From assembly GCA_016786595.1 (NCBI GenBank), contig JAEUWB010000035.1, positions 3,182-67,181 of the forward strand: DNA of 64,000 nucleotides, in the 5' to 3' direction. Source of the DNA: a bacterium. Its GTDB lineage: Bacteria; Bdellovibrionota_C; UBA2361; SZUA-149; JAEUWB01. The notes below the pieces were generated by a model, which had not been told where the DNA came from, searched no databases, and saw only the letters and a list, made by a program, of their open reading frames with translations. Positions within the stretch are counted from its first letter, which is position 1. Each line of letters begins with the position of its first letter. The translations under genes were made by a program, and so were the position numbers. Below are positions 6,755-41,147 of this stretch, piece after piece.

Positions 6755-9700
6755 ATGCGCCTAGAAACCTTTAGAAAAATTGTCAGTGAGAAAATTCTCG
6801 TGCTCGATGGGGGCATGGGAACAATGATTCAGGCTGCAAAGCTTAGTCCTGAAGATTACGCTGGGAAAATGCAGCTTGCCAAAGATCAAAAAGGCAATAA
6901 CGACTTGCTATCACTGACTCAGCCAGATCTGATTCGGCAAATCCACTCAACTTACCTCTCAGCAGGTGCCGATCTGATTGAGACCAATACTTTTAATGCC
7001 AATCAATTTTCCCAAGCAGACTTTGCCTGTGAGCACTTAGTTTATGAGATGAATCTGACAAGCGTTAACCTAGTGCGCGAAGCGATTAAGCTTAGCTCGC
7101 CGAGTCAAAGTGCTTATATTGCTGGGTCGATTGGGCCTTCAAATCGCTCTGTTACTTTGTCACCTGATGTTGAGCGTCCAGGTTATCGCGCTACGACATT
7201 TGCTGATGTTGTTCAGGCCTATACGCCACAAATCAATGCGCTGATTGACGGGCAAGTTGATTTCCTGCTCGTCGAGACAGTTTTTGATACGCTGCTTTGT
7301 AAGGCTATTCTGTTTGCAATCGATCAAGCGTTTGCACAAAAAAATACTCGCTTGCCGGTTATAGTTTCAGGCACGATTGTTGATTTAAGTGGCCGCACGC
7401 TCTCCGGGCAAACCGCCAAGGCTTTCTATCATTCGATCGCGCATGCCCCAGAACTTGCTGCGGTTGGCTTAAACTGCGCACTTGGCGCAAAGCAAATGCG
7501 ACCTTTTCTTGAAGAACTAGCTCGCGATATTCCTTATCCAGTCATTGCCTATCCGAATGCTGGACTACCCAATGAGTTTGGTGGCTACGACCAAACGCCG
7601 GGGCAGTTTTGTGGTGAATTAAAAGAGTTTTTGTCGCGCGGGCTGGTAAATTTAGTTGGTGGCTGTTGCGGAACAACGCCAGATCACATTCGCGAACTTA
7701 AAGACTTAGTCGAAGGTGTTAAGCCGCGAGTCATTCCGGAGCTTAAAGATCATTATCTTCATCTCTCTGGCTTAGAGCCATATACAAAAACTCCCGAGTC
7801 GAATTTTTTTAATATTGGCGAACGTACAAACGTAACTGGGTCGAAGAAATTTCTTGAACTAGTTAAAAATAATGATCTCGATACAGCTTTAACAATTGCG
7901 CGCGAGCAAGTGCTCTCTGGTGCCCAAGCTTTAGATCTCAATGTCGATGAGGGTTTGATTGATTCTCGGCAAATCATGCGTGATTTTGTGAATTTACTTG
8001 TATCCGAACCTGACATTTCGCGTGTTCCTTTCGTCTTTGATTCTTCAAAGTGGGAGGTGATTCAAGCTGGACTTGAATGCTGTCAAGGTAAGTCGATTGT
8101 TAACTCAATTAGCCTGAAGGAAGGGGAAGCGGAGTTTATTAAGCATGCCCGGCTTGCTCGTGCCTATGGGGCGGCTGTGATTGTCATGGCTTTTGATGAA
8201 AAGGGCCAAGCAGATACGCTCGATCGTCGCATTGAAATATGCCAGCGTGCCTATGATATTTTGACCAAGCAGGTTGGATTCCCGGCGGAAAATATTATCT
8301 TTGACCCCAACATTTTGGCTCTGGCGACGGGAATTGAAGAGCACAATAATTATGGCGTTGCCTTTCTTGATGCGGTGCGTTGGATTAAGACGAATTTGCC
8401 ACATGCTGGCGTAAGTGGCGGTTTAAGTAACGTCTCTTTTTCCTTCCGCGGAAATAATACGGTGCGTAGGGCGTTTAATACTATTTTCTTATACCACTCC
8501 ATTCGTGCCGGGCTTGACATGGCGATCGTCAATGCTGCTGAATTAGATGTTTATGAAAGTATTGACCCGACGTTACGTGATCACATTGAAGATGTTATTT
8601 TCAACCGTAGTCCTGATGCCACTGAGCGCTTGGTGCAATTTGCTGATAAATTAAAAGGAACTTCTACTGGAAAATCGGCAAGCGAGGATCTAACTTGGCG
8701 AAATCTCCCCGTAGCGGAGCGGCTGACGCATGCACTAGTCAAAGGCATTGCTGATTTTGTAGAAGATGACACCGCTGAAGCTTATCGTGAACTTAAAGAA
8801 CCAATGCTTGTAATTGAAGGCCCCTTAATGTCTGGGATGAACGTAGTGGGAGAACTTTTTGGCAGTGGCAAGATGTTTTTGCCGCAAGTTGTAAAAAGTG
8901 CGCGTGTAATGAAAAAAGCCGTTAGCGTGCTGCTGCCATATTTAGAAAACAAAAAGGCTGCAGTTAGCAAGAAGCATGGCAAGATCTTGCTTGCAACCGT
9001 TAAGGGCGATGTGCATGACATTGGGAAAAACATTGTCGGAGTTGTCTTGGGCTGTAACAACTACGAGATCCTCGATCTTGGTGTGATGGTTTCTTGTGAG
9101 AAGATTTTAGAAACAGCTCGACAGGAAGAGGTCGATATTATCGGCTTAAGTGGCTTAATTACTCCATCGCTTGATGAGATGGTGCATGTGGCTAAAGAAA
9201 TGGAGCGCTCAGGCTTTAAAATCCCGCTCTTAATCGGTGGGGCGACAACTTCACGCAAACACACTGCGGTGAAAATTGCTCCACATTACCAGCACGGCGT
9301 GGTGCATGTAAATGATGCCTCGCGAGCAGCACCGGTTGTCGGCAAGTTGATTAATAAAACGCTCAAGCCCGAATTCCTTGCGGAAATTAACTCTCAATAT
9401 CAGAAAATTGCCGATGAGTTTGCGCAAAAAAAACAAGACCGACATTATTTACCGATTCAAGAAGCCCGCAAGCATAAGCCACAGCTGAGCTATGACCCAG
9501 TTGTGCCAAAATTTTTAGGCGTCAAAGTTTATGACGATTTTCCGCTTGCTAGGTTAAGAAATTTCATTGATTGGGGACCTTTCTTTAATGCCTGGGAACT
9601 CCCGGGGCGGTTCCCAGAGATTCTAGATTCAGAGCAATATGGCAAGGAAGCTAGAAGCCTTTATCATGACGCAAGTCAGTTGCTAGATACCTTGATTGAC

Positions 9701-10414
9701 AAAAAACTGATCCGTGCCAAAGGCGTTGTTGGAATTTTTCCGGCAAATTCTACAGCTACAGATGATCTTAAAGTTTTTTCTTCGGAAGGTAAGTTGGAAG
9801 AGCTGATCACATTTAATATGTTGCGCCAGCAGGGGGAAAAGCGCGAAGGAATTTTTAACACTTCACTTGCCGATTATGTTGCTCCATTAGAGTCGGGGGT
9901 GCGTGATTACTTGGGCGCGTTTGCTGTGACGTCTGGAATTGGCTTAGCTGCGCTGGTTCAAGCTGCAGAAAAAGAGAACGATGACTACCGCTCGATTATG
10001 CTTAAGGCCTTAGCTGACCGTTTAGCTGAAGCTTTTGCTGAGTGTTTGCATCAGATCGTTCGTCGCGAGCTTTGGGCCTATGCGCCGGATGAGAATTTAA
10101 AGCCTGAGGCAATACTTCGCGAAAAATATCTAGGTATTCGTCCAGCGCCAGGCTATCCAGCCTGTCCCGACCACACGGAGAAGGAAAAGTTATTCAAGCT
10201 TCTAGCCGTAACTAAACACACTGGGATACAGCTTACGGAATCATATGCAATGACTCCGGCTGCAGCAGTTTGTGGACTTTATTTCGCCCATCCGGAAAGT
10301 CACTATTTTGGAATTGGTAGAATTCTTAAAGACCAAGTTGAAGAGTATGCAAAGCGTAAGGGCATGACAGTTGCTGCGGTGGAGCAGTGGTTAGCTCCGA
10401 ATTTGTTAGATTAA
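6755..10414 (+). CDS. metH: Cobalamin-dependent methionine synthase
   Basis: 1219 aa with homocysteine-binding, pterin-binding and B12-binding modules ([11 protein letters not shown] = DxHxxG cobalamin motif) and a C-terminal AdoMet reactivation domain. Confidence 0.92.
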
Positions 10415-10467
10415 TCAGACTGACCTTTAGGTAGCGCATCGAGAGGCAGTATGTTAAAATAGTTTTT

Positions 10468-10722
10468 ATGAGTGGTTTAAAGCAGCAACTTAAAGATTGC
10501 CCGATCGAGCTAGCGGATCAGCAAGGCAATATTGCCAGGTTTGGCAAGTTGGTCGATATGAACCGTTCTTTTGATATTAAATATTGGCAACAAAAAACCA
10601 CCTCAGAACGTATGCGCGCAGCTTGGGGGCTAGTAGTTTACGCTCTCCAACGTAAGGAGCAGATAAAAGATGAGCCCCGACTTCAAAGAGCTGTTACAAG
10701 CTTTCAACGACAATCACGTTGA
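10468..10722 (+). CDS. Hypothetical 84 aa protein
   Basis: ORF only; no motif recognised. Adjacent to the Fic locus. Confidence 0.3.
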   Translation: MSGLKQQLKDCPIELADQQGNIARFGKLVDMNRSFDIKYWQQKTTSERMRAAWGLVVYALQRKEQIKDEPRLQRAVTSFQRQSR

Positions 10723-10754
10723 GTATCTGCTAATCGGAGAAAAGTTGCAGTCCA

Positions 10755-11135
10755 CTAATTTGACTTCAGCCACTCTCGAAACATTGCCTGAAGACTTGTG
10801 TTTTTTTGCGTGGCGATAGCTCGGGCACGCTCAATATCTTTACGCTCTGCGCTTAGTGTAATTCTTCGAATTTCTATGTTGCGTTTTGGTGCACCGGCAT
10901 TTTTGCGATAACCCCCTTGTGAATGCGCCGAAGCCCAGGATTTAATTTCTCCTAATAATAATAACGTAGAATTTAAATTCATTCCTTTGACTAGCGTCCC
11001 GGTGGAAATCCATAAAAATACTTGCTCGATGTTAAGGCCTGGATATTTACTGAAATCTAGTGCTTCCAGGAATGCTTTGAACTGTTTGTGATCTTTTAGG
11101 TGCTTGAGTGCTTCTTGGTTGCTGAGGTTAATCAT
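10755..11135 (-). CDS. Hypothetical protein co-transcribed with fic (4 bp overlap); C-terminus resembles a ribbon-helix-helix DNA-binding tail
   Basis: Start overlaps the fic stop (ATGA). C-terminal ITLSAERKDIERARAIATQKNTSLQAMFREWLKS has an RHH-like pattern. Function not established. Confidence 0.4.
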   Translation of the reverse strand: MINLSNQEALKHLKDHKQFKAFLEALDFSKYPGLNIEQVFLWISTGTLVKGMNLNSTLLLLGEIKSWASAHSQGGYRKNAGAPKRNIEIRRITLSAERKDIERARAIATQKNTSLQAMFREWLKSN

Positions 11136-11899
11136 AGCGAGGTTAAGTGTTTATCCAAAAATTTTTCTAAATGCGAATACGAAATTTTAGCTTTATCTTT
11201 TACATATTGCCCAGTCATTTGCATCATAATCTTCAGGTGTTCAGGGCCATCATTGAGTTCAAAACGAAAGAAATATCCTAGTTCACTTGCAACCTTAGCA
11301 CTAACGAGAAACCGGCCGATACGTCCATTCCCATCAGTATAGGGATGCAGCATTTGAAAATGAAAATAGAGTTTTGCCAACGCACCGATTGCTAACTTTC
11401 GATTACTCGCTAAGTGCTTATTAATATGAAAATCAAGAAAAGCTTGATATTGTTCTTTAACCTCAATCGGATTTGCGTACTGTACTTCTACCAGCTTAGA
11501 ACCTTCTGTCCGCATTGTATAAGCACTGAGGTTAGTTGCGCCGCGATTTTTGCCTGGGGTTTTATCTCTTGGCTTTCCAATCCCACTCATTAAGATTTTG
11601 TGAGCTTGGTCTATATGTTTTGTAGTAATCAATTCATGTTGCAAGAAAATGCGATGAATATAACTTGCGCTTTGAATACCGTTTGTTAATTCAAGGTGTT
11701 CATCAACAGCATGTCCATGGATTACTTTACCGTTTAAGACTTGCTGGGCTTGATATTCTGTGAACGTAGAACCTTCGACTAGTGTTGAGCCAATTAAATG
11801 TCCTTCGATTAAACGCTTAATGAGTTTGTCATAGAGATGTTCTAGCTTTGGATTTAACTCCCTTAATTGCGAGATGCTTTTAGATGATATACTTTTCAT
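11132..11899 (-). CDS. fic: Fic/Doc family protein (AMPylation or related nucleotidyl/phosphocholine transferase)
   Basis: Canonical Fic motif HPYTDGNGRIGR (HPFx[DE]GNGRxxR) at aa 186-197. 255 aa. Confidence 0.8.
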   Translation of the reverse strand: MKSISSKSISQLRELNPKLEHLYDKLIKRLIEGHLIGSTLVEGSTFTEYQAQQVLNGKVIHGHAVDEHLELTNGIQSASYIHRIFLQHELITTKHIDQAHKILMSGIGKPRDKTPGKNRGATNLSAYTMRTEGSKLVEVQYANPIEVKEQYQAFLDFHINKHLASNRKLAIGALAKLYFHFQMLHPYTDGNGRIGRFLVSAKVASELGYFFRFELNDGPEHLKIMMQMTGQYVKDKAKISYSHLEKFLDKHLTSL

Positions 11900-12225
11900 G
11901 ATTTGATTATAGTACGTCTAATAATCAAAGGCAACAGGTGTCTACTGTCAGTAAATCGGAAATTCTGTAACTATTATAAGCTGTTAAATAGTCATTTAAT
12001 TTTGAGAGCTCGTACGGTCAGTAAAACAGCATAACAAATAAGCCTAACTCGTATCTTTGCTTGGAGTTTTTGCAAAAAAATTCGTGAAGGAGTGGGGGCC
12101 TTGCAGTCACTTTAAGTGGCTGAAGAAGAGTGTTCTCTGAAAATTATTTTTTTGCGGTAGAGGAAATTTAATCGCTGTTCAATTGGGTTTGGGGCGTGAG
12201 TACGAGTGGAATTAGCATTGCATTC

Positions 12226-12330
12226 ACGCTTAGGCTTGAACATGCACTTAAACTTATCCTTAGCTTTTGTTCGATTGTCTGAAGTAGATCGAGAAGGGGA
12301 AGCATAAGTTCGGGTGCAAGCCTAAGGCTA
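12226..12330. repeat. Repeat family B, inverted pair (partial reverse copy CTTAGGCTTGAAC..., forward copy GAGAAGGGGAAGCATAAGTTCGGGTGCAAGCCTAAGGC)
   Basis: Matches other copies at 22613-22685, 23323-23408, 49594-49637 and 50073-50103. Confidence 0.55.
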
Positions 12331-12478
12331 AACAGTTTCAACACGCCGATTCCAATCGAACAGCGACAGAGTTATTTAAGGTTTTATTTATTTTTATCAT
12401 GGTGCTTTGTGTCTTCACTCGAGCGCTTGGAAGTGAATCGTCACTTTCCAGAGTTCGTTCGGAGGACACAACAAAACC

Positions 12479-13354
12479 ATGTGGATCATTCTACTTATCG
12501 TCATCGCCGTTGCCGCGCTTTGCGCGTGGTGGGCGATCATCAACGCCAAGGAGTTAGCGAAAGCTAACTCCGAACTCAAGACTCTCAGGGCCAACTCAGC
12601 GGCCCAGACCGACCCGCTCGCAACGCAGATAACTGCGATGCAAGAGCAAGCGACAATCGATGCAGCAGAGAGAGATACTCTGAGGCAGAAATTGGCCAAC
12701 GCGGAAGCCTTGCTCAAGCAAAAGACCGAACTTGCTTCGACTGCACAGGAAACCAGCAAGCAAACTGGCTTTCAACTCAAGAATGCTCAGGATGCGCTGA
12801 AGCTCGCCCAGCAGCAGATCGATGCGCTCCAAAAAGAAGTCGCAACGCTGCAGGCGAAGTGCGACCCGACCTTGCTTGATCAGCTCAAAGCTGCGCAGGC
12901 AGAGCTCGAGACTACTCTCAAGCAAGTCGAAGCTCTGAACAAGGACAAAGAGCGTCTGCAGAAGGCGATCGAGGAAGGACAGGCAAAGGTTGCAGATCTG
13001 GAGAAGAGCAACGCGGGTCTCCGCAAGTATCTCCTCTGGTTCCAGCGCCTCTGGGCGTCTCTTGGGGACTATCCCAAGGCGTTTGGTGGCACTGACAAGG
13101 AGCTTGGCGCTTGGGATACGGTCGAAGAGGCTGATGTCCAAGCGCTCTGCAATAGAGTCGTTGCCTTCCATAAAGTTGCGATTCTGCTTGCTGGTGTGAT
13201 TGACAACATCGCTCGCCAAGTTGGTGACAACTTCCCGACTGCTGTTCAGATCGTCTCCGGCAAGGATGACGCTCGCAATCGCTTGAAGGACTTGATCGCC
13301 AAGCTTCAACTTCGGCAGGAAGATAAACCAGCCGAAGCGGAGCAAGGTAAGTAG
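12479..13354 (+). CDS. Membrane-anchored coiled-coil protein (N-terminal TM helix, about 250 aa heptad-repeat region); high-G+C gene
   Basis: TM segment MWIILLIVIAVAALCAWWAII followed by long coiled-coil-like sequence (LKQKTELAST..., ELETTLKQVEALNKDKERLQKAIEEGQAKVADLEK). Preceded by GGAGGA N ACAACAAAACCATG. Antisense ORFs 12596-13411 and 12918-13409 are interpreted as high-G+C artefacts. Confidence 0.55.
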   Translation: MWIILLIVIAVAALCAWWAIINAKELAKANSELKTLRANSAAQTDPLATQITAMQEQATIDAAERDTLRQKLANAEALLKQKTELASTAQETSKQTGFQLKNAQDALKLAQQQIDALQKEVATLQAKCDPTLLDQLKAAQAELETTLKQVEALNKDKERLQKAIEEGQAKVADLEKSNAGLRKYLLWFQRLWASLGDYPKAFGGTDKELGAWDTVEEADVQALCNRVVAFHKVAILLAGVIDNIARQVGDNFPTAVQIVSGKDDARNRLKDLIAKLQLRQEDKPAEAEQGK

Positions 13355-13356
13355 AA

Positions 13357-13431
13357 AGGAGTGTGTCCTCTTGGGGCGGAAAAGAGAAATCTGATCCGCC
13401 CCTGAACACACTCCTCCTACGACTTTTTTGG
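13357..13431 (+). terminator. Rho-independent terminator-like long GC-rich hairpin followed by a T-run
   Basis: AGGAGTGTGTCCTCTTGGGGCGG ... CCGCCCCTGAACACACTCCTCC, then TACGACTTTTTTGGG. Confidence 0.5.
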
Positions 13432-13630
13432 GCGACCTTTTTTGGCTACCTTTAGGTTACGAAACTCTGTCGCGTTCATTTTTATGATGTGATGTGCCGC
13501 AAGGTATAAATGTTTTTGCCTTGCACCCGCTGTGCGGGAGATTGCCGCGGCTACTAACGTAGCCTCGCAATGACAGTGAATGTCATTTTTATGATGTGAT
13601 GCAAAGCCAGTAGTCAATGGCATTACTGGC

Positions 13631-13757
13631 GTCATCTCGACCGAAGTAGTTCGTCTAAAATTTGTTTTAGACGAATTACGAGTGGAGAGATCTCCTAGAA
13701 TGATCCATTCTAGGATTTGGAGATTTCTCGACTCCACTTCGTGTCGCTCGAAATGAC
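13631..13757. repeat. Repeat family A: forward copy with a hairpin insertion (13631-13695) and a compact reverse copy (13715-13757), separated by the palindrome TAGAATGATCCATTCTAGG
   Basis: GTCATCTCGACCG...GAGTGGAGAGATCTCC on the forward strand, and on the reverse strand GTCATTTCGAGCGACACGAAGTGGAGTCGAGAAATCTCCAAAT. The whole 13417-13870 spacer is repeat-rich, including two copies of CATTTTTATGATGTGATG at 13474 and 13577. Confidence 0.6.
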
Positions 13758-13969
13758 GGTGCTTGTAGTTTTAAGCTGCTTTAGCAATCTCCAGCGCAAG
13801 CGGGGTTAGTGCTTTTAGTGTGTTCTTTGAAAATTTAATATGGGTGAGATTGGGAATATTTTAAGGTTATTATTTGTTTTATTTTTCATCGCTAATACGT
13901 TGTTTGGATTCCTCCCTGGTTTGCATTTTACCTGAAGTGCAAAGCCTGGAGGAATCCGACAACAAAACT

Positions 13970-15109
13970 ATGAAACTTTTCGATTGGCTTAACGGCCGCT
14001 TCGCCAGCGGCACCTCGTCAACCACGACCCCGCCGCCAGCGGCAGGGTCCACGACTTCGACTTCGACTCCGGCGGCAGCGCCAGCTCCGAGCCTTGTGAA
14101 ACAAGGATTCGGAGTCTTCGTGCGGACAGGGTTTTTCCTGGCCGCCTTCATCGTCGTCGGCGCGATCGCATTCTTTGCGATTCGTGCCGCCGTCCATAAG
14201 TCGCCCGAACAGGTGACTAAAGAGCGCGAGGCGAACGAACTTCGCATCGCGCAAGAAGAGAAGGTAAAAGCGGCCAAGGCTGCCTGGGACAAACCCAAGG
14301 CAGCATACGAAGACGCCGCTGCGGAACTTCCGGCGAAAGCTGAGGAAGTCCGCAAGGCCTTTGCCGCTCTCGACACCGTCGAGTTTGGCTCCGATGATCT
14401 CCACCCTGTGTGGAAGACCATGAAGGGCCGCGTTGACGGATTCTCTGATGAGAACGTCGACAAACTCCTCGATGCTGCTGAGCAAGCTGCCATCGCCGCC
14501 GAGACCAAGAAATCTCAAGGCCTCGATATTGCATGGCCAAGCGCTGAAACGGCAGTCGTTGAAGATGCTCTCGCGAAAGCGAAGGCACTCATCGGCGACA
14601 TTGCGGCTCTCGAAGCCAAGGGCACGTCCTTCACTGGAACCCCTGGCGCCGAGACTGCGTTAGCACGCTTCACGCGGGAAACCTCCGAACACGCTGCGGA
14701 TGTGGCGAAAGAAGAGGCGGATGCGAAAGTTGAGGACGCAAAGTTCGAGGCGGTCTGCTACGCGCAGTTCGACAAAATGGTCCTTAACGTGGATGCTAAA
14801 GGCAACCCGACGCCTCGAAAGATGCGCTGGCAAGCTCGCAGCATGTATCAGCTCGGCGAAAGTCTTCGCGAGTTCGAGACCGCCGTGTCTCTTGTCGCCA
14901 AGAAGGACAAGGCACGAGTGGGCTTTCTCTACGGTAATCCCGAAGAGATCAAAAAAGCCCACAAGTTTCTCAAAACTTGGATCGTCAACAACTTCGCTGA
15001 GTTTCTCACGGATCAAGAAGCACGCGACCTCGGTCAAGCGCTTCGCTATCCTGAGATCAAAGAGGTCCCCGACGTTGACGACATCAAGTCGCGCTGGAGT
15101 ATCGAGTGA
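13970..15109 (+). CDS. Membrane-anchored Ala/Glu/Lys-rich coiled-coil protein with a Thr/Pro/Ala-rich N-terminal linker; high-G+C gene. The ORF track starts it at 13874, but ATG 13970 carries the conserved leader.
   Basis: GGAGGAATCCGACAACAAAACTATG is a leader nearly identical to that of the 12479 gene. Low-complexity STTTPPPAAGSTTSTSTPAAAPAPS, TM helix FFLAAFIVVGAIAFFAI, then about 300 aa of charged helical sequence. Many long antisense ORFs (13879-14508, 14018-14518, 14217-14588, 14660-15037) indicate high G+C. Confidence 0.55.
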   Translation: MKLFDWLNGRFASGTSSTTTPPPAAGSTTSTSTPAAAPAPSLVKQGFGVFVRTGFFLAAFIVVGAIAFFAIRAAVHKSPEQVTKEREANELRIAQEEKVKAAKAAWDKPKAAYEDAAAELPAKAEEVRKAFAALDTVEFGSDDLHPVWKTMKGRVDGFSDENVDKLLDAAEQAAIAAETKKSQGLDIAWPSAETAVVEDALAKAKALIGDIAALEAKGTSFTGTPGAETALARFTRETSEHAADVAKEEADAKVEDAKFEAVCYAQFDKMVLNVDAKGNPTPRKMRWQARSMYQLGESLREFETAVSLVAKKDKARVGFLYGNPEEIKKAHKFLKTWIVNNFAEFLTDQEARDLGQALRYPEIKEVPDVDDIKSRWSIE

Positions 15110-15138
15110 GGCGGTGATGAAACTGTTGTCGGAAAAGT

Positions 15139-15185
15139 TCGAGAGTGGCCCAAAAGGCCCTCTCGACTTTTCCCTACTGTTTTTG
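15139..15185 (+). terminator. Terminator-like hairpin after the second high-G+C gene
   Basis: TCGAGAGTGGCC CAAAA GGCCCTCTCGA followed by CTTTTCCCTACTGTTTTT. Confidence 0.4.
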
Positions 15186-15282
15186 AGATTCCCAATCTCC
15201 CCGCCCTTTTATAATGATCGGGTTTAGATTGAATGATACAAATCGAATCAAGCAGTCATAACAATTACAAGAGTTTAAATTA

Positions 15283-15717
15283 ATGGACGAGAATTTAGAA
15301 AATTTAAAGCCAGCAAGGCTTGGCATCAAGGGTAAAATATTCTTTATTTCCTGTGGCTTAGGCTTTTTAGCCTTAGGCGTCTACGGTTCGGATTATATTG
15401 GAACAAATGGCCATGCATTTACCGCATCTGAAGAATCAGCAAGTTCTGTAAATGCAAACTATATTTGGGGCACTACTCCTTCTGGGGCTAGGCGGCCGAA
15501 TCCTGACATGGGATTTTTACAGAAAATCTTCTGCCGTGGGCGGAAAACATCAAGTTTCTGCACAGTCGAAGGATATCGCAGTGGCGATAACTACTTACAC
15601 CCATATTATCAATGGTGGTCAGACTGGGCCGCTCGCCCAGATGTAGATCTCGATGCACGCGGTAAACATGCCGCAGAGATGGAAGATATGGTCGGTAAGG
15701 CTCCAAATTCATTATAG
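15283..15717 (+). CDS. Hypothetical protein with an N-terminal hydrophobic segment
   Basis: ORF with TM or signal-like FFISCGLGFLALGVYG. No recognisable motif. Confidence 0.4.
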   Translation: MDENLENLKPARLGIKGKIFFISCGLGFLALGVYGSDYIGTNGHAFTASEESASSVNANYIWGTTPSGARRPNPDMGFLQKIFCRGRKTSSFCTVEGYRSGDNYLHPYYQWWSDWAARPDVDLDARGKHAAEMEDMVGKAPNSL

Positions 15718-15818
15718 TTTTTCTGGTTTAAACAATAATCGCATTTGAAAGGCACATCTTTTATTACAATCGCCATAACAGTTCTAGAAGTTAAAAATAC
15801 CTTAAGAGTTTAAGATTT

Positions 15819-16280
15819 ATGGATGTATTGAGCAAAGCAAATCTAAAAAAAATAAAGCTAAATTATTCGAAAGCTTGTAGCAGTTTTTATTCGCACTATC
15901 TGACTTTTACCTATCAACATCAGACCTTGATGTTGTTTGCACTTGGTTTTGTTACGCTAGCATGCGGACTTACAAGTGTTGCCATTGCTCAAGATGTAGG
16001 AATCGGTGACCCAAACTCAACAGGCGATACCAGAATCGGGGTATTTGCATGTCGGTTAATCCAACTTATTGAAGGTAATCTCGGCGCACTAATTATGATT
16101 GTCGCTGGTCTTGGCACAGTTATTTCTGCTGCGCTTGGCAGTTATGGACAAGCATTAAGTTTGCTGGTCGTGGCTTGTGCTTCATTTACACTGCGCTCAT
16201 TTGTAAGAATGTTTTTCGGCTATAATGGCGCTACAGTTCTAAATTGCGGAAATGGCGGAGGTTCTTCTTCGGCCGGTTAA
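15819..16280 (+). CDS. Small double-hydrophobic-segment membrane protein, candidate VirB2/TrbC-like T4SS pilin (hypothesis)
   Basis: Possible internal start at MLFALGFVTLACGLTSVAIA (signal-like). The mature part has two hydrophobic stretches (CRLIQLIEGNLGALIMIVAGLGTVISAALG and QALSLLVVACASF) and a Gly-rich C-terminus (GNGGGSSSAG), which resembles VirB2-type pilins. Followed by a strong terminator. Confidence 0.4.
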   Translation: MDVLSKANLKKIKLNYSKACSSFYSHYLTFTYQHQTLMLFALGFVTLACGLTSVAIAQDVGIGDPNSTGDTRIGVFACRLIQLIEGNLGALIMIVAGLGTVISAALGSYGQALSLLVVACASFTLRSFVRMFFGYNGATVLNCGNGGGSSSAG

Positions 16281-16305
16281 GTTAAAAATTTCATTTATCG
16301 CCCTA

Positions 16306-16346
16306 GAGCAGGTTTATGTGTTGCACGCTGACCTGCTCTTTTTTTG
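16306..16346 (+). terminator. Rho-independent terminator
   Basis: GAGCAGGT TTATGTGTTGCACGCTG ACCTGCTC followed by TTTTTTT. Confidence 0.65.
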
Positions 16347-16461
16347 TACACGACTTGAGCTCTACTCTGCCTTTTTGTTCTTTTCCAGCTAGAGCAGCTT
16401 TCCCAAAACATTCAGTGTCGCCTGTTTGGAGATCCTTCGGCTGTGCCGAGCAAAAATAAAT

Positions 16462-16563
16462 TTGGCTCGTGCTCGCTCAGGATGACAATCTTTTTAGCGT
16501 TATAGATAATAAATACCGTCATCTCGAGCGAGCACGAAGTGCGAGTCGAGAGATCTCCAAAAA
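16462..16563. repeat. Repeat family A inverted pair (reverse copy about 16462-16488, forward copy 16518-16560)
   Basis: GGCTCGTGCTCGCTCAGGATGAC (rc GTCATCCTGAGCGAGCACGAG), then GTCATCTCGAGCGAGCACGAAGTGCGAGTCGAGAGATCTCCAAAAA. The two copies can form a long hairpin. Confidence 0.65.
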
Positions 16564-16583
16564 TAAAACTACGAAAAGAGTGG

Positions 16584-17552
16584 CTACGACTGCCGCATGG
16601 AAGTGCGCAGCATCTCGGCCATAGCCAGCACCGTGCTGATATATGGCTCGGAGCGATTGTAGTGCCAAATTGCCTGACGCTTTGCGCTAGAAGTCATCTG
16701 TGCGCTGCTCCAGCCATGATGCGCAAGGAATTTTGCAACAGAATTAATTGCATCAGCAGGAGTGAAGATATCGACCCGGCCATTCCTGTCTCCATCTACA
16801 CCATAAGCGAGCACGTTTCCCGGAAGAAACTGAGGAATACCGAGCGCCCCGGCACCCGAGCCCCGTAAATCAAGCGGGCTTAAATTTGAGCGCGACGCTA
16901 GAATAATTGCCGCAACCACGTGCGGCATAAAAGTGTCTTCGAGATACTTTGCCCGCTGATATACAGCTTCTCGAGTTACATTTGGGTTTTCGGCTTTACG
17001 TCTGCGATATGTCGCCTCGAGGCTTTCTGCATCGGTTGCATTTGCCAGGCGTAGTAATCCATGGAAGGTAGGACGTTTGCCAGTATTTTTCCCGCAATAA
17101 GTTTCGACTTGTAGAATCGATAAAATCACACTTGCCGGAACATTAAACTCAGTTTCAGCACGAAGAAAATCTGTGCGGTGCTTACGATAGAAATTTAAAG
17201 CATTGGCGCGATTACGTTTGGTGTTAAGTTTGCGGTAAGGGTAGTGCGATTCACGTGGGTTAAGTGAGAAAATCAAAGGTTCATGGCGCGGTAGGCGCGG
17301 GTCAGATAAAATTGCTTCAAGGTGCTTTGGATCTATGCCCTTAGTGCTCAGGATTTTAAAGGCATGATCCCAGCCTCGTAAGCCCTGTTTTGGTTGATAT
17401 GAAGTGACCGTGCTCGATTGTTGCTGAGTAAAAAAGGGCTCTTTGCTTAATTCTTGTGAGAGTTTGCTTGCTAACATTGTGTCGATGGCAAACGCCGGAG
17501 ACGTGGCCCCCAGAATAATCAAGCTTAAATGTGCAAAGACACTTTTTTTCAT
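16584..17552 (-). CDS. mltB: Lytic murein transglycosylase (MltB family)
   Basis: Signal peptide MKKSVFAHLSLIILGATSPAFA, catalytic-region LSILQVETYCGKNTG, and C-terminal GAGALGIPQFLPGNVLAYGVDGDRNGRVDIF...AHHGW, typical of MltB-type transglycosylases. Confidence 0.85.
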   Translation of the reverse strand: MKKSVFAHLSLIILGATSPAFAIDTMLASKLSQELSKEPFFTQQQSSTVTSYQPKQGLRGWDHAFKILSTKGIDPKHLEAILSDPRLPRHEPLIFSLNPRESHYPYRKLNTKRNRANALNFYRKHRTDFLRAETEFNVPASVILSILQVETYCGKNTGKRPTFHGLLRLANATDAESLEATYRRRKAENPNVTREAVYQRAKYLEDTFMPHVVAAIILASRSNLSPLDLRGSGAGALGIPQFLPGNVLAYGVDGDRNGRVDIFTPADAINSVAKFLAHHGWSSAQMTSSAKRQAIWHYNRSEPYISTVLAMAEMLRTSMRQS

Positions 17553-17683
17553 CAGCCTTAGTCAATACTTATCATTCTACTATATGAGCAAGGAATGTTC
17601 TTTGTCGACAAAAATCTTGTAGAATAAGCGTTCAGGAAAGTAAAAGTTGGATAAAGCACTCCGCTTGGGTGTGCCCGGACTTT

Positions 17684-18661
17684 TTATAGCCAATCGGTGT
17701 TTTGGTACTGAATCGAATAGGGGTTTGCGAAATAGCCATTTTCGATCTTTTCTTTCAGTCCAACTAGGCTTGCTTCCAAGGAATACTTCGGGGTCCAGTC
17801 TAAAATTTTCTCAATCTTTGTCGAGGAAAGATGGTAATTTAAAAGGTCAGCATCCTCTTCTCCAATTTCAACTGCAGTGCCTGGAACCAGGCTATTAACA
17901 ACCTGAACAACGTCACTGACGGCTAGATTCTGGTCATTGTCTCCCAGATTAAAGGTCTCTCCGCTAATTAAATTTACATGAGCCCGGAGACAAGCCAAGA
18001 TTGCTTGAGCTACATCATCAACATGAATCATCGCCCGGCATTGCTCGGCGCTACCAATAAAAATTGACTTTTTGCATACAGCGTCGCGCATTAATTGATT
18101 TGCTACCGCATCAAAGCGCATCCGCGGAGAAAATCCATGACACTGTGCGATGCGTAGCACAGTAGAGTGAATCCCGGTGCGCTTGGCCCGAATCACGCGC
18201 TCTTCCATGCGCAGCTTTAAGCGCGCGTAAAGACTCACAGGTTCAGGGGTGGTAGTTTCAAAAACAACGCCACTGACATTGCCATAGACGCTGTCTGTCG
18301 AGGCGAAAATAAAGCGCTCCACTCCGTGCTCAATTGCAGCATCAAGCGCTACCGTTGAGGCAAGAAAATTAACATCGCGAATACCTGAATGCTTAACTTC
18401 TTGAAAACGGTGTCCGACCACAGCGGCAAGTAGGACAACAGCCTCGGCATCTCTGACTGCATGCGAAACTTCACGGACGTCACAGAGATCGCCATCCAGA
18501 ATTTCTAAATCGGGGGAATCAAGCCCTTTTAATCCATCATCGCCATAGCGAAAATTATCTAGCACTCTGACAGCGAAGCCATGATTGATTAAGTGCCGCA
18601 CAAGACTGGAGCCGATATATCCCGCGCCACCAAAAACGACAATTCTGGGTTTTGTAGTCAT
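17684..18661 (-). CDS. NAD-dependent epimerase/dehydratase (SDR family, GalE-like)
   Basis: N-terminal Rossmann motif IVVFGGAGYIGSSLVRHL. 325 aa. Confidence 0.8.
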   Translation of the reverse strand: MTTKPRIVVFGGAGYIGSSLVRHLINHGFAVRVLDNFRYGDDGLKGLDSPDLEILDGDLCDVREVSHAVRDAEAVVLLAAVVGHRFQEVKHSGIRDVNFLASTVALDAAIEHGVERFIFASTDSVYGNVSGVVFETTTPEPVSLYARLKLRMEERVIRAKRTGIHSTVLRIAQCHGFSPRMRFDAVANQLMRDAVCKKSIFIGSAEQCRAMIHVDDVAQAILACLRAHVNLISGETFNLGDNDQNLAVSDVVQVVNSLVPGTAVEIGEEDADLLNYHLSSTKIEKILDWTPKYSLEASLVGLKEKIENGYFANPYSIQYQNTDWL

Positions 18662-18681
18662 ATTCCAACTGAGCTTAAATA

Positions 18682-20172
18682 CTAACTTTGGCGTTTTAGT
18701 TTTGGTCCAGTCGCACTATCTTCAATTACAAACCCCTGGGCAAGAATTTTGTCGCGCAGCTCATCGGCAAGCTTGAAATCCTTGGCTTTTCTTGCAGCTT
18801 GGCGACCTTCAAGTAGCGTCAGTACTGCTGCTGGAATCTCTACTGTTCCTTCTTCCCAAGTTTCAATGCCAAGTCCAAGAACTTGGTCAAACTTGTAAAG
18901 TAGGCACAGCTTGTCGGCACTAGCCAAGCTGCTGTCGGATAAAAGCTGATGTAGTACGGCAATAGCTCGCGGCATGTTGAGGTCGTCGAAGAGTGCTGCG
19001 TTGAAAAGTTGGCTATATTGGTTTGACTGAGCCTGACGGACTTGTGATTGTGGGTTATTAGGGTCGGAGTGGACGAGATTGCCACGGTCGCTATCGCTCC
19101 CTTGCAATGACGAGCCCGAGACAGCTTTGATACTTAAGATCGTTGATTTAATTTTTTTCAAGGTGTTGATGCTTGCTTCGAGACTCTCCCAACTAAACGA
19201 TAACTCTTGGCTATATTTACTTGTGAAACAAAATAATCTGTAGGCGATAGGGTCGATTTTACGCTCAAGCAGTTTATCTAGTGTGAGAAACCCTCCTTTG
19301 GATTTTGACATTTTGTCATTGTTGTCCAGCAGAAACCCGCCGTGCAGCCAAAAGCGCGAAAAGGGTTTTCCAGTCGCACCTTCGCTTTGTGCAATCTCAT
19401 TGGTGTGATGCACAGGGATGTGATCAATCCCGCCGCAGTGAATATCGAAACTCTCCCCCAGGTATTTCATCGACATAGCGCTACATTCAATATGCCACCC
19501 TGGATAGCCTCGGCCCCAAGGTGAATCCCACTGGAGTTCCTGATTTTCAAACTTTGATTTGGTAAACCATAGCGCAAAGTCTAGGGTGTTACGCTTTTTG
19601 CTATCGACTTCAATGCGCGCTCCGGCTTGAAGTTGGTCGAGCGGCAAGCGAGCAAGCTTGCCGTAATCATCAACTTTAGTGATATCGAGATAGACGTTTC
19701 CTCCACTTTCGTAGGCAATGCCCTTAGCCTCAAGGCGCTTGATCAATTCAATCATTTCTTGGATGTGATCGGCGGCTTTACAGACGATCTCAGGACGTTG
19801 AATGTTTAATAGCGCACAGTGGTTAAAGAATATCTCTGTATAGTAGGCAGCTATTTCTGCTGAGCTCTTTCGCTCGCGCTTGGCGGCAAGAGCCATTTTG
19901 TCTTCGCCTTCATCGGCATCAGAAACAAGGTGACCAACGTCAGTAATATTCATCACGTGGCGCACGGAGTAGCCAGCAAATCTTAGGGTGCGGACTAGAA
20001 TGTCTTCGAAAATGTAGGTTCTTAAGTTGCCAATATGCTGATAATTATAGACCGTTGGCCCACAGCAATAGATTTTAACTTCGCCCTTGGATAAGGGTTC
20101 GAAGACATCTGTGGTTCTTGTGAGCGTATTGTATAGTTTAAGCTTTTCACCCATAAATTCTGCTTTGGCCAT
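18682..20172 (-). CDS. cysS: Cysteine--tRNA ligase
   Basis: HIGH motif (CCGPTVYNYQHIGNLRTY) and KMSKS motif (DKMSKSKGG). 496 aa. Confidence 0.92.
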   Translation of the reverse strand: MAKAEFMGEKLKLYNTLTRTTDVFEPLSKGEVKIYCCGPTVYNYQHIGNLRTYIFEDILVRTLRFAGYSVRHVMNITDVGHLVSDADEGEDKMALAAKRERKSSAEIAAYYTEIFFNHCALLNIQRPEIVCKAADHIQEMIELIKRLEAKGIAYESGGNVYLDITKVDDYGKLARLPLDQLQAGARIEVDSKKRNTLDFALWFTKSKFENQELQWDSPWGRGYPGWHIECSAMSMKYLGESFDIHCGGIDHIPVHHTNEIAQSEGATGKPFSRFWLHGGFLLDNNDKMSKSKGGFLTLDKLLERKIDPIAYRLFCFTSKYSQELSFSWESLEASINTLKKIKSTILSIKAVSGSSLQGSDSDRGNLVHSDPNNPQSQVRQAQSNQYSQLFNAALFDDLNMPRAIAVLHQLLSDSSLASADKLCLLYKFDQVLGLGIETWEEGTVEIPAAVLTLLEGRQAARKAKDFKLADELRDKILAQGFVIEDSATGPKLKRQS

Positions 20173-20331
20173 AACTTGTTGAAATAATTAGATTTGGTTC
20201 GACCCTAATTCATCACAGAACTAAGCATACATCAAAATAATAATAATTCTTTAGAAACTAAGCTGGAAATCCGTTCATCTAATTACAGCGAGCATAGAAA
20301 ATAGACAAATCAGATAGGAAGATAAGCTCCA

Positions 20332-21435
20332 GTGCGCCTGATGCCCTCAGAAAATTCAAGATCCGAATACACTCAGCTTGGCGACGCTTTGGTATTTAAA
20401 TTGCGCCCACTCTCGGGCGAGTTTCCTCGCATTGTAAATGTCTTGCCTGGAACGATTGCAGTCTTAAGAACAGGTGTAATCGAGGACCTACGTGAAATTA
20501 GAGAAAAATTCGATATTTGTACTCAAACTAAAAGTTTACGCGTCGATTTACGTGTCGGCGCACGAGAGCTCTACGAATCAGAACTCAGTTCTAATCGACT
20601 AGTCAATGCGCATTGGAACGATCAACCCTTAATTTTGATACTCGACCGTGTCAATCTACCACGACACCTAGCGGAAAAACTTCTCGGTTTAGCTGGCGTA
20701 GAAAATCCCGCAATGTTGTGGGCGCATGCGCCACATGCTGCGCGCGGCCTAGTGCGCCTGCTCAACGCAGTGATGACGCGCTCCCCGGTAATATACTTAG
20801 AAAACCCCTTCAGTGATTTCTCTTTGGCGTTAATGGAATGTTCAGCGAAGTTGATTATTGAAGAGCTGAGCATGCGCGATGCTAGATTGGTAGTCGTTGG
20901 CTTGGAGCGTCTTCCCGAAGCGTGGCGTAAATCTGACCGCGTAAGAGAAATCAGTTTGAATATGCTTGCTACTGAAGATCATTTGATCGCAAGTAGTATT
21001 CGTAAGGCGGCAAAATTAATTGACCAATTACGGATCGTGCATCAGGGCAATACGCTAAGCAATGAACACTTGATTGTTACTCGTCCACAGCGGATTTCAA
21101 TCAGTGCTTATCGCGAGGTTAGCGAGCAAATGCTCAGAGAAAATATCGTTAGCCCAGTTTTGAATGGCCAACTTGAGGCGCGGTCAGATACTAGAGTTTC
21201 CAGGCAGCGTCGCAAGGGCACGTTAACTCGAATGAATTTTTCTGAGCGACTGATGCTTCGTGCTGGGCGCATCTTGCTTGGTGCTTATCAGCAGGCGTCA
21301 AACTCCAAGCTGATGCATAGCGCTTCTGCGTTAATGCTTAAGCGCGGCAGTTTGCAACAGCAGCGACATTACTCGATGCTGAAAGTCCTAGTGTTCGGCT
21401 TGCTTTTGGCAGGGATACTGCTTTTTCCTAAGTAA
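20332..21435 (+). CDS. Hypothetical protein with a C-terminal TM helix
   Basis: ORF only; C-terminal VLVFGLLLAGILLF hydrophobic anchor. No motif recognised. Confidence 0.45.
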   Translation: MRLMPSENSRSEYTQLGDALVFKLRPLSGEFPRIVNVLPGTIAVLRTGVIEDLREIREKFDICTQTKSLRVDLRVGARELYESELSSNRLVNAHWNDQPLILILDRVNLPRHLAEKLLGLAGVENPAMLWAHAPHAARGLVRLLNAVMTRSPVIYLENPFSDFSLALMECSAKLIIEELSMRDARLVVVGLERLPEAWRKSDRVREISLNMLATEDHLIASSIRKAAKLIDQLRIVHQGNTLSNEHLIVTRPQRISISAYREVSEQMLRENIVSPVLNGQLEARSDTRVSRQRRKGTLTRMNFSERLMLRAGRILLGAYQQASNSKLMHSASALMLKRGSLQQQRHYSMLKVLVFGLLLAGILLFPK

Positions 21436-22129
21436 TCGCTTCTTTGCGATCTAAGAATTTCTGATGCTCAACTTTAATAATTGCTAAAGCCTCTGCGGGG
21501 GTTTCTACGACATGAATCCAACGCATGTCAGTTGGGCCGACAAGCCCACGGTCGATTTGCTGCTTGCGCATCCAGTCGAGTAGCCCTTGCCAGAATTTTG
21601 CATGGATTAAAATAATTGGCCGACTTGTGAGGTGTCCGATTTGCAGTAACTGCCAAAAGAAATAAAGCTCCAGCAGTGTGCCAATGCCTCCAGGCATGAC
21701 AACTACTGCATTGGAAAGGCGCATGAAGTCGTCGAGGCGTGTAGAAAATGTGCGGTGATGTTGTTTAATATCGAGATGCATGTTGGTATGTTTGGCTTCA
21801 ATCCCGCCTTGGATCGAAAGCCCGAACGACTTCGATTTGCTGCGCGTTTCATTGCGCCCTTCAGTTAAGCCTTTATTTGCAGCCTCCATTAGTCCTGGTC
21901 CACCGCCCGTGAGCACGTCAATGCCTTGATGGCCAAGTAGGTGCGCAAGCTCTTCTGTGATTTTGTAAAGCTCATCATCTTGCTTAATGCGGGCGCTGCC
22001 AAAGATGCAAACGCGGTAAAAGTCATTGGTGTATTCTAAAAGTTCTTGTTCGATAAAACGGATGCGATCGCGGAGGATATTTAAGCGATCGGTAAGACGC
22101 CTACGGCGCTGGCCTTTGTCTTCTTGCAT
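21428..22129 (-). CDS. LOG family protein (cytokinin riboside 5-prime-monophosphate phosphoribohydrolase-like / TIGR00730)
   Basis: VCIFGSARIKQDD...GIDVLTGGGPGLMEAANKG...PGGIGTLLELY matches the LOG-family GGGxGxM and PGGxGTxxE motifs. Confidence 0.8.
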   Translation of the reverse strand: MQEDKGQRRRRLTDRLNILRDRIRFIEQELLEYTNDFYRVCIFGSARIKQDDELYKITEELAHLLGHQGIDVLTGGGPGLMEAANKGLTEGRNETRSKSKSFGLSIQGGIEAKHTNMHLDIKQHHRTFSTRLDDFMRLSNAVVVMPGGIGTLLELYFFWQLLQIGHLTSRPIILIHAKFWQGLLDWMRKQQIDRGLVGPTDMRWIHVVETPAEALAIIKVEHQKFLDRKEAIT

Positions 22130-22134
22130 AATAT

Positions 22135-22560
22135 TTATTCGTCGTCGTTTGTGCCGGTTTTTTCAGTTTCGATGACGTCATGGTTACTATCGACGTCTTG
22201 TTGAATCCCATGCGTTAATAATTCGATGCGTTGACGCAGCAGTCTCGTCCAGTTTTCCCAGCCAGGCGCATCGCTGCGCTCGTCAATCATTTGCTCTAAT
22301 ACTTCAGGTTCGTCTCCTGGGTGCTCTTCGGAAATTTGATGAATTGAGGCAATTGCGAAATCTAGAGCAACGAGGATTTCTTCGTAATTTTCTTCTGATT
22401 TTAGACCGAGCGAGGCATTCTTCGATCGCACTTGAGCTCGGGCAATGGCCATGCGCAGCTCAGTTGCTGCTTGTTCAAGTTCACTAAGCTCTAATGCCCT
22501 GACCGGCTCAGAAATGAGGCGCGGGTTATGATGCGGATGGAAGTAGCGGTAAAGATCCAT
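22135..22560 (-). CDS. Hypothetical acidic protein
   Basis: ORF only, 141 aa, Glu/Asp-rich C-terminus. Confidence 0.4.
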   Translation of the reverse strand: MDLYRYFHPHHNPRLISEPVRALELSELEQAATELRMAIARAQVRSKNASLGLKSEENYEEILVALDFAIASIHQISEEHPGDEPEVLEQMIDERSDAPGWENWTRLLRQRIELLTHGIQQDVDSNHDVIETEKTGTNDDE

Positions 22561-27944: not shown

Positions 27945-27959
27945 TAACAGAACTTTATT

Positions 27960-28026
27960 TTGGAGATCTCTCCACTATGCACATCGCCACTTTAAAGTGA
28001 CGATGTGCTTCGGTCGAGATGACGCG
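27960..28026. repeat. Repeat family A, reverse-orientation copy with an internal palindrome
   Basis: TTGGAGATCTCTCCAC...GCACATCGCCACTTTAAAGTGACGATGTGC...GGTCGAGATGACGCG. Confidence 0.65.
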
Positions 28027-28105
28027 ATTTTGAATGTCGATAGTAAAACTTAGCAACATATTTGGTAAGTGCTGCTGTCTTCATTTCTAATACCGACAAC
28101 CAGCG

Positions 28106-36343: not shown

Positions 36344-36346
36344 CTT

Positions 36347-38836: not shown

Positions 38837-38841
38837 CTTTT

Positions 38842-41145: not shown

Positions 41146-41147
41146 GC

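Follow-up and report, generated by a model that had tools for sequence, protein, structure and literature searches.

Do two neighbouring genes whose base composition sets them apart from everything around them belong to the genome in which they sit, or were they brought in from elsewhere? We asked this of genes 1 and 2 (Table 1), which lie between about 12.4 and 15.2 kb in a stretch of contig JAEUWB010000035.1 that is 64 kb long and is called the window throughout. The contig, 86.8 kb in length, belongs to a metagenome-assembled genome (MAG; locus tags JNK13_054xx). A first-pass annotation, made from the letters alone, had seen here a foreign G+C-rich island encoding two membrane-anchored coiled-coil proteins. 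Our results lead us, with moderate confidence, to the reading that genes 1 and 2 are two laterally acquired accessory genes, which would have come from a source of about 55-58% G+C and which lie in a variable chromosomal interval.

Base composition and codon usage

G+C content along the locus was determined in 300-bp windows. It was 0.50-0.62 at 12.35-13.4 kb and again at 13.85-15.2 kb, compared with about 0.34-0.49 alongside, and in the rest of the 64-kb window it was 0.37-0.50 per 1-kb bin and never exceeded 0.50. Measured against background windows of 900 bp (0.452 +/- 0.023, maximum 0.511), gene 1 has a G+C of 0.547 (z = 4.2) and gene 2 a G+C of 0.575 (z = 5.4). These data confirm the sudden rise in G+C and, together with the codon data below, the atypical codon usage that the first-pass annotation had reported. 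Its description of the G+C as much higher than that of the surroundings was correct as to the rise, but the level reached, 55-58%, is only moderately high. In 60-bp windows, G+C climbs from the start codons (12480 and 13980) and falls off near 13400 and 15130, and the spacer at 13440-13970 is ordinary (0.32-0.53). The locus therefore consists of two separate G+C-rich coding sequences and is not a single contiguous island, as had been proposed, because the rise in G+C is confined to the coding sequences and the 615 bp that separate them are ordinary.

G+C at third codon positions (GC3) was 0.630 in gene 1 and 0.639 in gene 2, whereas the other 43 open reading frames (ORFs) of the window range from 0.31 to 0.49. 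When GC3 was predicted from amino-acid composition and native codon usage, values of just 0.403 (gene 1) and 0.410 (gene 2) were obtained, and native genes scatter by +/- 0.041 around such predictions. Because composition predicts only 0.40-0.41, the excess of GC3 sits in synonymous codon choice and not in the 17% alanine of the products. The dinucleotide signature was atypical as well, with distances of 0.178 and 0.194 for the two genes compared with 0.068 +/- 0.022 for the background, whose maximum was 0.167.

The two genes also differ from native genes in the kind of codon that they prefer. In native genes the preference for C-ending codons and that for G-ending codons are anticorrelated (r = -0.48), and lpdA, a gene that is probably highly expressed, has a C-ending fraction of 0.62 and a G-ending fraction of just 0.21. 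C-ending and G-ending codons are both enriched in genes 1 and 2 (0.57/0.69 and 0.66/0.62, respectively), and a two-axis codon test gave Mahalanobis distances (D) of 5.2 and 5.5 versus a native maximum of 3.0. Since both classes of codon are high, unlike in native genes, these data disfavour a codon bias linked to expression.

Coding frames and start sites

The plus-strand coding frames of both genes are real, because several lines of evidence agree: the positional pattern of G+C, the start motif, the terminators, the hydrophobic helix with amphipathic helical sequence behind it that each frame encodes, and, for gene 2, the mostly synonymous change between alleles. In the plus frames, G+C at first codon positions (GC1, 0.63) exceeds that at second positions (GC2, 0.37-0.45), with a high GC3. 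A start motif, ACAACAAAAC(C/T)ATG, precedes both ATGs; exact copies are found at these two starts alone in the window, and a third, imperfect copy with two mismatches lies at 40128. The start context common to both genes, ACAACAAAACYATG, is 14 nt long. Between two strains, 12 codons of gene 2 are changed in the plus frame, 7 synonymously and 5 nonsynonymously. Database entries call gene 2 from an upstream TTG, which gives a product of 401 amino acids (aa) whose extra part is encoded by the leader hairpin described below; we favour the ATG at 13970 as the start because the motif is common to both genes.

The first-pass annotation had listed six long overlapping ORFs across the locus, which lie on the minus strand, and all six exist as listed. 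Counting shadow ORFs of at least 120 aa, we found seven at 12.4-15.3 kb and one in the remainder of 1-32 kb. Genes in alternative frames or on the antisense strand were rejected: the ORFs of the other frames had no family matches, Pfam included.

Leader RNAs, promoters and terminators

Each gene has a T-rich block upstream, followed by a leader, about 85 nt long, whose predicted fold is much more stable than those of its shuffles (Table 1). The same three-tier plan was found in both leaders: the AUG is paired with a CAU upstream of it, GGAGGA with a pyrimidine arm (GUCUUC or UUCCUCC), and at the top there is a variable inner hairpin. In the gene-1 leader, the partner of ACCAU in the start region is an AUGGU further upstream, that of the GGAGGA arm (GGAGGA at 12461-12466) is UUGUGUCUUC, and the inner hairpin lies enclosed. 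In the gene-2 leader, UUUCAU pairs with AUGAAA, which includes the start codon, and UUCCUCC pairs with GGAGGAA (GGAGGA at 13948-13953) within a stem of about 16 bp, which encloses an inner hairpin of 12 bp. The two leaders align at their ends and differ inside. An upstream GGAGG is absent from most other genes of the window.

If the leaders fold as predicted, the structure would hold off translation of the gene that follows, and at about -40 kcal/mol it would be too stable for an RNA thermometer. We suppose that translation would require opening or cleavage of the leader; candidates are RNase III, for which the stem of nearly 30 bp would be the substrate, a helicase or a small RNA. The region has no Rfam match at the gathering score, and the matches to microRNA precursors that fall on the leader-2 hairpin are at chance level.

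The promoter-like site just upstream of the gene-2 leader (Table 1) matches 9 of 12 consensus positions, and sites of this kind are no more numerous in the region than in shuffles; by sequence, the promoter evidence for the two gene cassettes is weak. The claim of the first-pass annotation that each gene has its own strong terminator was borne out, as at the end of both genes there is a strong hairpin (z = -5.8 and -5.4) with T-runs behind it. The gene-2 terminator has the A-tract/T-tract layout that is typical of intrinsic terminators. A simple consensus scan missed both terminators, and it was folding that found them.

Database searches

Judged by sequence searches, the products of both genes are orphans. 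A word-indexed HMMER search of 5.8 billion clusters returned only self-matches for either protein, and an exhaustive phmmer/HMMER scan of 1.84 billion representatives returned, for protein 2, only protein 2 itself. No relatives of proteins 1 and 2 were found by tblastn of phages and plasmids or in IMG/VR scans, the sequence search of PDB gave nothing meaningful, and Foldseek found no match of the structure models to PDB at E <= 0.001. In the family libraries, protein 2 has just two matches, FixH at 13.5 bits on the membrane helix and the XaxA family at 18 bits. Protein 1 has many weak matches to coiled-coil families (crescentin rod, SMC, Rad50, JetC, tape-measure, Rz/LysB), all of them far below the cut-offs, and these matches are driven by composition. 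With no relatives among about 15 billion predicted proteins, the two products are a true orphan pair that can be used for functional testing or as a case study of orphan-gene origin.

Strain comparison and the variable interval

We compared the locus between assemblies. The NCBI MAG, ENA scaffold_7287 and a Logan contig all have the same junctions. The ENA scaffold (L001) comes from another sample and has the same arrangement at 99.6% identity, and the Logan contig spans 14369-18248 at 99.97% identity. The differences between L001 and the window were distributed very unevenly. At 10405-14771, a tract that runs from the end of metH through a Fic-domain module and gene 1 into gene 2, most of which it covers, there is 1 difference in 4,367 bp; at 14772-15119 there are 14 in 348 bp (4%), and at 15319-22407 there are 28 in 7,089 bp (0.39%). 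Because the right-hand rate would give about 17 differences in the left block and only 1 is seen, the left block appears to have been recently exchanged or swept. At the right-hand junction (Table 1), a replacement alters roughly the first 12 codons of the gene at 15283-15717, so that the N-termini read MDENLENLKPARLG... and MEIGQKKITAAKLG... in the two strains. Taken together, these sequence comparisons suggest that the locus is a recombination mosaic and that a gene-2 allele of about 4% divergence circulates in the population.

Genes 1 and 2 lie in an interval between metH and a block of housekeeping genes (mltB-like, epimerase, cysS). The nearest available relatives keep the CysS-epimerase synteny and none further; a Bdellovibrionota MAG, for example, shares the order transketolase ... 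LOG ... cysS-epimerase, and its synteny stops at the epimerase. The closest CysS proteins outside the species are 62-65% identical, and the named ones belong to Bdellovibrionota, Oligoflexia, Dadabacteria or "Deltaproteobacteria". These affiliations, and the synteny that is limited to the epimerase, suggest that the host is probably a deep Bdellovibrionota-like lineage without a close sequenced relative. A MetH scan of the genome collection gave, among the matches listed, relatives of 52-57% identity from many phyla, and for the flanking transglycosylase a metagenome scan gave relatives at 39-46% only. The loci of the relatives range from 37% to 57% G+C, the highest value being that of MAG GCA_046328905.1. 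Because these loci reach 57% G+C, a suitable donor is plausible within the same broad clade.

Origin of the two genes

Foreign origin is the best reading of the outlying GC3, codon usage and dinucleotide signature, of the orphan status of the products, and of the patchy interval and the loss of synteny. Thus, the earlier proposal of acquisition from a high-G+C donor survives as the best reading of composition, codons and orphan status; it is unproven, with no donor found. If genes 1 and 2 were acquired, each could be regarded as an independently transcribed, moron-style cassette, self-contained, odd in composition and dropped between resident genes, and the pair may share an origin or a regulator.

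A number of observations weigh against acquisition or against the model that we attach to it. No donor or homologue was found in any of our searches, so the case for transfer is one of composition alone. Outside the coding sequences G+C is not raised, and the spacer looks native, which would call for two insertions or for later remodelling of the spacer. No integrase, transposase or relaxase turned up when the flanking ORFs and most ORFs of the window were scanned against Pfam, NCBIfam and PHROG, no tRNA marks a boundary (the sole tRNA of the window is at 63179-63254), and no direct repeats bracket the genes. Both genes are present in all three species assemblies that cover the site. The codon background is that of this 64-kb window alone, which has no ribosomal-protein genes. 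As to the leaders, there are two instances and they are identical between strains, so covariation gives no support, and the distance between GGAGGA and the AUG, 12 and 16 nt, is greater than a normal Shine-Dalgarno sequence would allow. Because of this distance, "Shine-Dalgarno sequestration" may misname the leader; the safest statement that the folding models allow is that the whole initiation region would be buried in each leader. As to the products, topology and coiled coils were called by simple home-made rules, and the structure models are of low confidence (predicted local distance difference test, pLDDT, 50-55).

The alternative that deserves most attention, although we consider it unlikely, is that the genes are native, fast-evolving and lineage-specific, and that their GC3 was raised by translational selection or by GC-biased gene conversion at a recombination hot spot. 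The strongest codon shifts in genes 1 and 2 are indeed to NNC codons (ATC, AAC, TTC, GTC, CTC, GGC, CGC), which is the usual direction of translational selection, and some native genes prefer C over T in the same way (cysS 0.53, lpdA 0.62). However, the C-preferring native genes avoid G-ending codons (r = -0.48), whereas genes 1 and 2 are high on both axes (D 5.2-5.5), and the genes for pyruvate dehydrogenase E1 and E2 and for transketolase have an ordinary GC3 of 0.42-0.44. Gene conversion could draw on the signs of recombination between strains at the locus, but it should have lifted the spacer and the flanks too, and both are ordinary or low in G+C. A native origin would also agree with the elevation of G+C in coding sequences only, with the lack of mobility genes in the scanned ORFs and with the presence of the genes in every species assembly covering the site; against it, the dinucleotide signature deviates as well as the codons.

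Predicted products and their possible roles

The first-pass annotation had given each protein an N-terminal membrane anchor followed by a long coiled coil. For protein 1 both parts of this description held. By our rules, residues 1-21 form a hydrophobic helix and residues from about 25 to 185 are coiled-coil-like; heptad patches were found by a crude script within residues 47-185, so that, with the weak family matches, a coiled coil is supported by the sequence. The C-terminal part (186-291) is predicted to be helical, with a second, moderately hydrophobic helix at 227-245. For protein 2 the description held in part. There is a membrane helix, but it lies further in, at about 47-73. A Thr/Ser/Pro/Ala-rich stretch is also present, but it forms the N-terminus (13-41) and precedes the helix, whereas it had been taken for a linker that follows the anchor. 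The remainder of protein 2 is predicted to be helical and is acidic (isoelectric point 5.1). The same script found only two short, marginal heptad patches in it, and Pfam, PHROGs, NCBIfam and PADLOC gave no coiled-coil family match; protein 2 as a coiled coil is not supported. The soluble parts of both proteins are acidic, and AlphaFold2 models made from single sequences are all-helical (pLDDT 55 for protein 1 and 50 for protein 2).

Protein 1 has no charge before its helix and three Lys/Arg within the 15 residues after it. Because an uncharged N-terminal helix is followed by Lys/Arg, the positive-inside rule predicts an N-out/C-in topology, as in EzrA or the N-terminus of RNase Y, with the coiled coil in the cytoplasm. 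In protein 2 positive charges flank the helix on both sides, which makes its topology ambiguous. If the genes are accessory genes as we suggest, their products would be bitopic inner-membrane proteins that oligomerise through their long helices, and most likely accessory membrane-associated scaffold or envelope proteins. The mutual similarity of the two proteins is confined to a 23-residue C-terminal segment (shuffle z = 3.5, p = 0.004; full length z = 1.9), so paralogy is suggestive only.

The first-pass annotation had likened the products to surface, secreted or effector-like proteins. On this reading the helical parts would be exported and would be directed against prey or host, and we consider it doubtful, more so than a native origin of the genes. 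In both proteins a hydrophobic helix does lie near the N-terminus and long helices are predicted, but neither has a cleavable signal-peptide or lipobox pattern, as read from the sequence, and for protein 1 the rule-based reading of the charge pattern puts the C-terminal part in the cytoplasm. Stretches rich in Thr/Ser/Pro/Ala, such as that of protein 2, are common in extracytoplasmic linkers. The C-terminal end of gene 2 is its most variable part between strains; however, the allelic changes are mostly synonymous and not diversifying. Among the probable relatives of the lineage are predatory Bdellovibrionota, which display fibres with variable tips (PMC10769870), but the beta-rich N-domain of those fibres is absent and the models are all-helical. 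In the window there are TraG_N-like genes and a weakly VirB2-like gene, and against this stands the lack of any match to an effector, adhesin or toxin family in Pfam, PHROGs, NCBIfam and PADLOC. No evidence from family, fold or context points to surface exposure, secretion or effector function.

Less probable still, in our estimate, is that the two proteins represent a new membrane-anchored helical family that works as a two-part module, in membrane-active defence or in interaction with prey or envelope, and that is gated by a new type of long leader RNA, in which the start codon and a GGAGGA box would stay buried until cleavage or unwinding. If they did form such a module, the two genes may be distant paralogues.

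We give very little credence to the idea that the genes encode a divergent binary alpha-helical pore-forming toxin of the XaxAB/YaxAB (ClyA-like) type. The genes are adjacent, their predicted products of 291 and 379 aa are all-helical, and both match NF033928 (alpha-xenorhabdolysin subunit A; E = 8e-4 and 1.4e-3), which is the sole match of protein 2 in NCBIfam. However, these matches score 18.8 and 18.0 bits against a curated cut-off of 125, and protein 1 matches SMC, Rad50 and other coiled-coil models better, which makes this an effect of composition. No solved chain of the XaxA/YaxA/ClyA family was found at E <= 10 for protein 2 or at E <= 1 for protein 1, and Foldseek gave nothing. Members of the XaxA/YaxA-type family are soluble and are not known to have an N-terminal anchor.

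That the locus is an artefact, whether a chimeric assembly, a contaminant or non-coding G+C-rich DNA with accidental ORFs, is scarcely credible: the source is a MAG and G+C-rich DNA does yield long ORFs in many frames, but the locus is present in three independent assemblies and so is not a chimera, with identical junctions on both sides in different samples, GC1 (0.63) exceeds GC2 (0.37-0.45) in the plus frames, the start context and the terminators are well defined, the amphipathic pattern after the membrane helix is what a real protein would show, and allelic change is mostly synonymous in the plus frame.

Repeats and neighbouring genes

The first-pass annotation had described the gene pair as embedded among repeats of a family A. 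This family is a hairpin repeat of about 55-75 nt (CGTCATCTCGAGCG ... GAGTCGAGAGATCTCCAAA) with seven units in the window, often in inverted pairs and all intergenic. The units in the spacer and after the 153-aa gene (Table 1) are real, but the family is not specific to the locus, as the remaining units lie near 28 kb (27956-28172) and 63.5 kb (63550-63616). Two further elements had been assigned to family A. The one at 12.42 kb is in fact the gene-1 leader hairpin, whose resemblance to the family is weak, and the repeat at 13476/13583 is a separate, local duplication of 19 nt. A second repeat family (AAGGGGAAG..AAGTTCAAGCCTAAGCC) has four intergenic copies, at 12294, 22652, 23374 and 50071. 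Both families are native interspersed repeats and not island boundaries, and because native repeats lie in the spacer, the spacer DNA is host-like.

A 15-nt inverted pair with one mismatch (13843-13857/15188-15202) brackets the gene-2 cassette exactly, and its right arm ends 10 nt short of the strain breakpoint. Terminal inverted repeats bracketing the cassette were rejected, since the counts of such pairs are compatible with chance after the known repeat families are removed. An integron cassette was rejected as well: as read from the sequence, the terminator hairpins have no attC core sites, and there is no integrase among the scanned ORFs.

On the left, the Fic module (10755-11899) had PADLOC matches to PDC-S04 (2e-18) and SoFic (1e-15), and by sequence it resembles a toxin-antitoxin or defence module. 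Its G+C is under the genome level, and it is a second, A+T-rich and probably acquired unit that adjoins the G+C-rich pair. Extended to the left, the sequence showed housekeeping genes only. On the right, the 153-aa protein matches the TrbC/VirB2 pilins weakly (E = 0.022), and five contigs from several samples encode it in identical form; its gene adjoins the mltB-like transglycosylase. Other housekeeping genes of the window include a LOG-family gene, a peroxiredoxin gene and a transketolase gene.

Elsewhere in the window, we noticed an unusual array of five tandem paralogues of 711-932 aa at 33578-46378, with conserved Trp-rich blocks and weak TraG_N matches; one of the five has weak DUF4225 and SseC matches too. 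At 52067-55498 there is a run of four genes, two of which encode RAMP-superfamily proteins (52067-53053 and 54281-55498); judging by these proteins the run may be a type III CRISPR-Cas-like module, and no CRISPR array was noticed. At 63179-63535 there are 3.2 copies of a 94-nt unit with 97% identity, the first of which overlaps tRNA-Arg(TCG) at its 3' end. Integrative elements may have left these repeats as stacked scars of their attachment sites.

Table 1. Positions in the window of genes 1 and 2, their signals, nearby repeats and flanking genes
Feature	Position	Strand	Details
Helicase-nuclease gene	2069-6736		
metH	6755-10414		
Fic module	10755-11899	minus	small gene and Fic-domain gene, 4-bp overlap; G+C 0.415 and 0.375
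Inverted repeat, 33 nt, imperfect	12229-12326		left flank; right arm is a native intergenic repeat of the AAGTTCAAGCCTAAGCC type
Gene-1 leader hairpin	12399-12480	plus	-42.2 kcal/mol, z = -5.9, 0/200 shuffles equal
Gene 1	12479-13354	plus	291 aa; MBL7662170.1 in the NCBI record
Gene-1 terminator	13351-13420 (compound hairpin)	plus	T6 runs 13424-13429 and 13438-13443; -44.7 kcal/mol, z = -5.8
Direct repeats, 19 nt, exact	13476-13601	plus	TCATTTTTATGATGTGATG; 107 nt apart, in spacer
Family-A units (two)	13626-13762		inverted orientation; spacer between the genes
Promoter-like site	13844-13873	plus	GTGAGA, 18 nt, TATTAT; just upstream of gene-2 leader
Gene-2 leader hairpin	13884-13975	plus	-38.2 kcal/mol, z = -6.5
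Gene 2	13970-15109	plus	379 aa from the ATG with the shared motif
Gene-2 terminator	15131-15173 (hairpin)	plus	GGAAAAGUUCGAGAGUGGCC/GGCCCUCUCGACUUUUCC; T5 run 15181-15185; z = -5.4
Right-hand junction	15212-15318		107 bp; L001 has an unalignable 198-bp segment (4810-5007)
Gene for 144-aa membrane protein	15283-15717		next gene to the right of gene 2
Gene for 153-aa multi-helix membrane protein	15819-16280		
Family-A units (two)	16420-16568		after the 153-aa gene
mltB-like transglycosylase gene	16584-17552	minus	
Epimerase gene and cysS	17684-20172	minus	

Comparison with known systems

A close parallel to the gene cassettes is the moron, which, as Hendrix and colleagues are said to have defined it, is an autonomous accessory-gene cassette in a phage. 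Like morons, genes 1 and 2 each have their own upstream region, ORF and intrinsic terminator, an odd composition and unrelated neighbours. Unlike morons, they do not lie in a prophage: no phage structural or lysis genes were found when the neighbours were scanned against PHROG, neither protein has a match in the phage or IMG/VR collections, and promoters are weakly predicted.

The locus also resembles the atypical islets of orphan genes (ORFans) in its odd composition and codons, its orphan products, its variable interval beside a Fic module and its mosaicism between strains. Bacterial ORFans are usually A+T-rich and short. In contrast, genes 1 and 2 are G+C-rich and encode 291-379 aa, their G+C is up in the coding sequences only, and no integrase, tRNA or direct repeat is present here. 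If our reading is correct, the locus is a further example of uncultured bacteria gaining self-contained orphan genes in plasticity zones. It is mildly unusual in that the orphans are G+C-rich and not A+T-rich and in that the same very stable, start-hiding leader stands before both; the genes do not open a long-standing question.

In architecture only, protein 1, with one membrane helix followed by about 160 coiled-coil-like residues, is like EzrA, the N-terminus of RNase Y and the Rz i-spanins. It has a weak match to the RNase Y-like PRK12705 (4e-4) and marginal matches to Rz/LysB spanins (E = 7e-4 to 1e-2), and EzrA was among the non-significant Foldseek matches of protein 2. However, all these scores lie far below the family cut-offs, and there is no KH/HD domain, no cell-division context, no embedded or adjacent o-spanin or lipoprotein ORF and no holin or endolysin neighbour. 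The likeness of protein 1 to these proteins is an analogy and not membership.

The mosaic adhesive trimer (MAT) fibres of Bdellovibrio are defined by a beta-rich N-domain (PMC10769870). The host is probably of the same phylum, and the MAT proteins, like the products predicted here, are elongated, form oligomers and vary between strains at the C-terminal end. Proteins 1 and 2, however, are much shorter, have sequence similarity to nothing and come out as all-helical in the predictions. Membership among MAT fibres was excluded by the missing beta-rich domain in the all-helical models.

The leaders have parallels of another kind. Leaders that sequester the initiation region are found in the ROSE and fourU RNA thermometers and in the RNase III-activated adhE leader of E. 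coli. The leaders of genes 1 and 2 are alike in that a pyrimidine arm pairs with GGAGGA and a CAU further upstream pairs with the AUG, in both genes. Unlike RNA thermometers, they are far more stable, at about -40 kcal/mol over about 85 nt. Taken together, these comparisons place the locus in a familiar class, that of orphan islets of atypical composition, and the matched leaders that would bury the start are its most unusual aspect.

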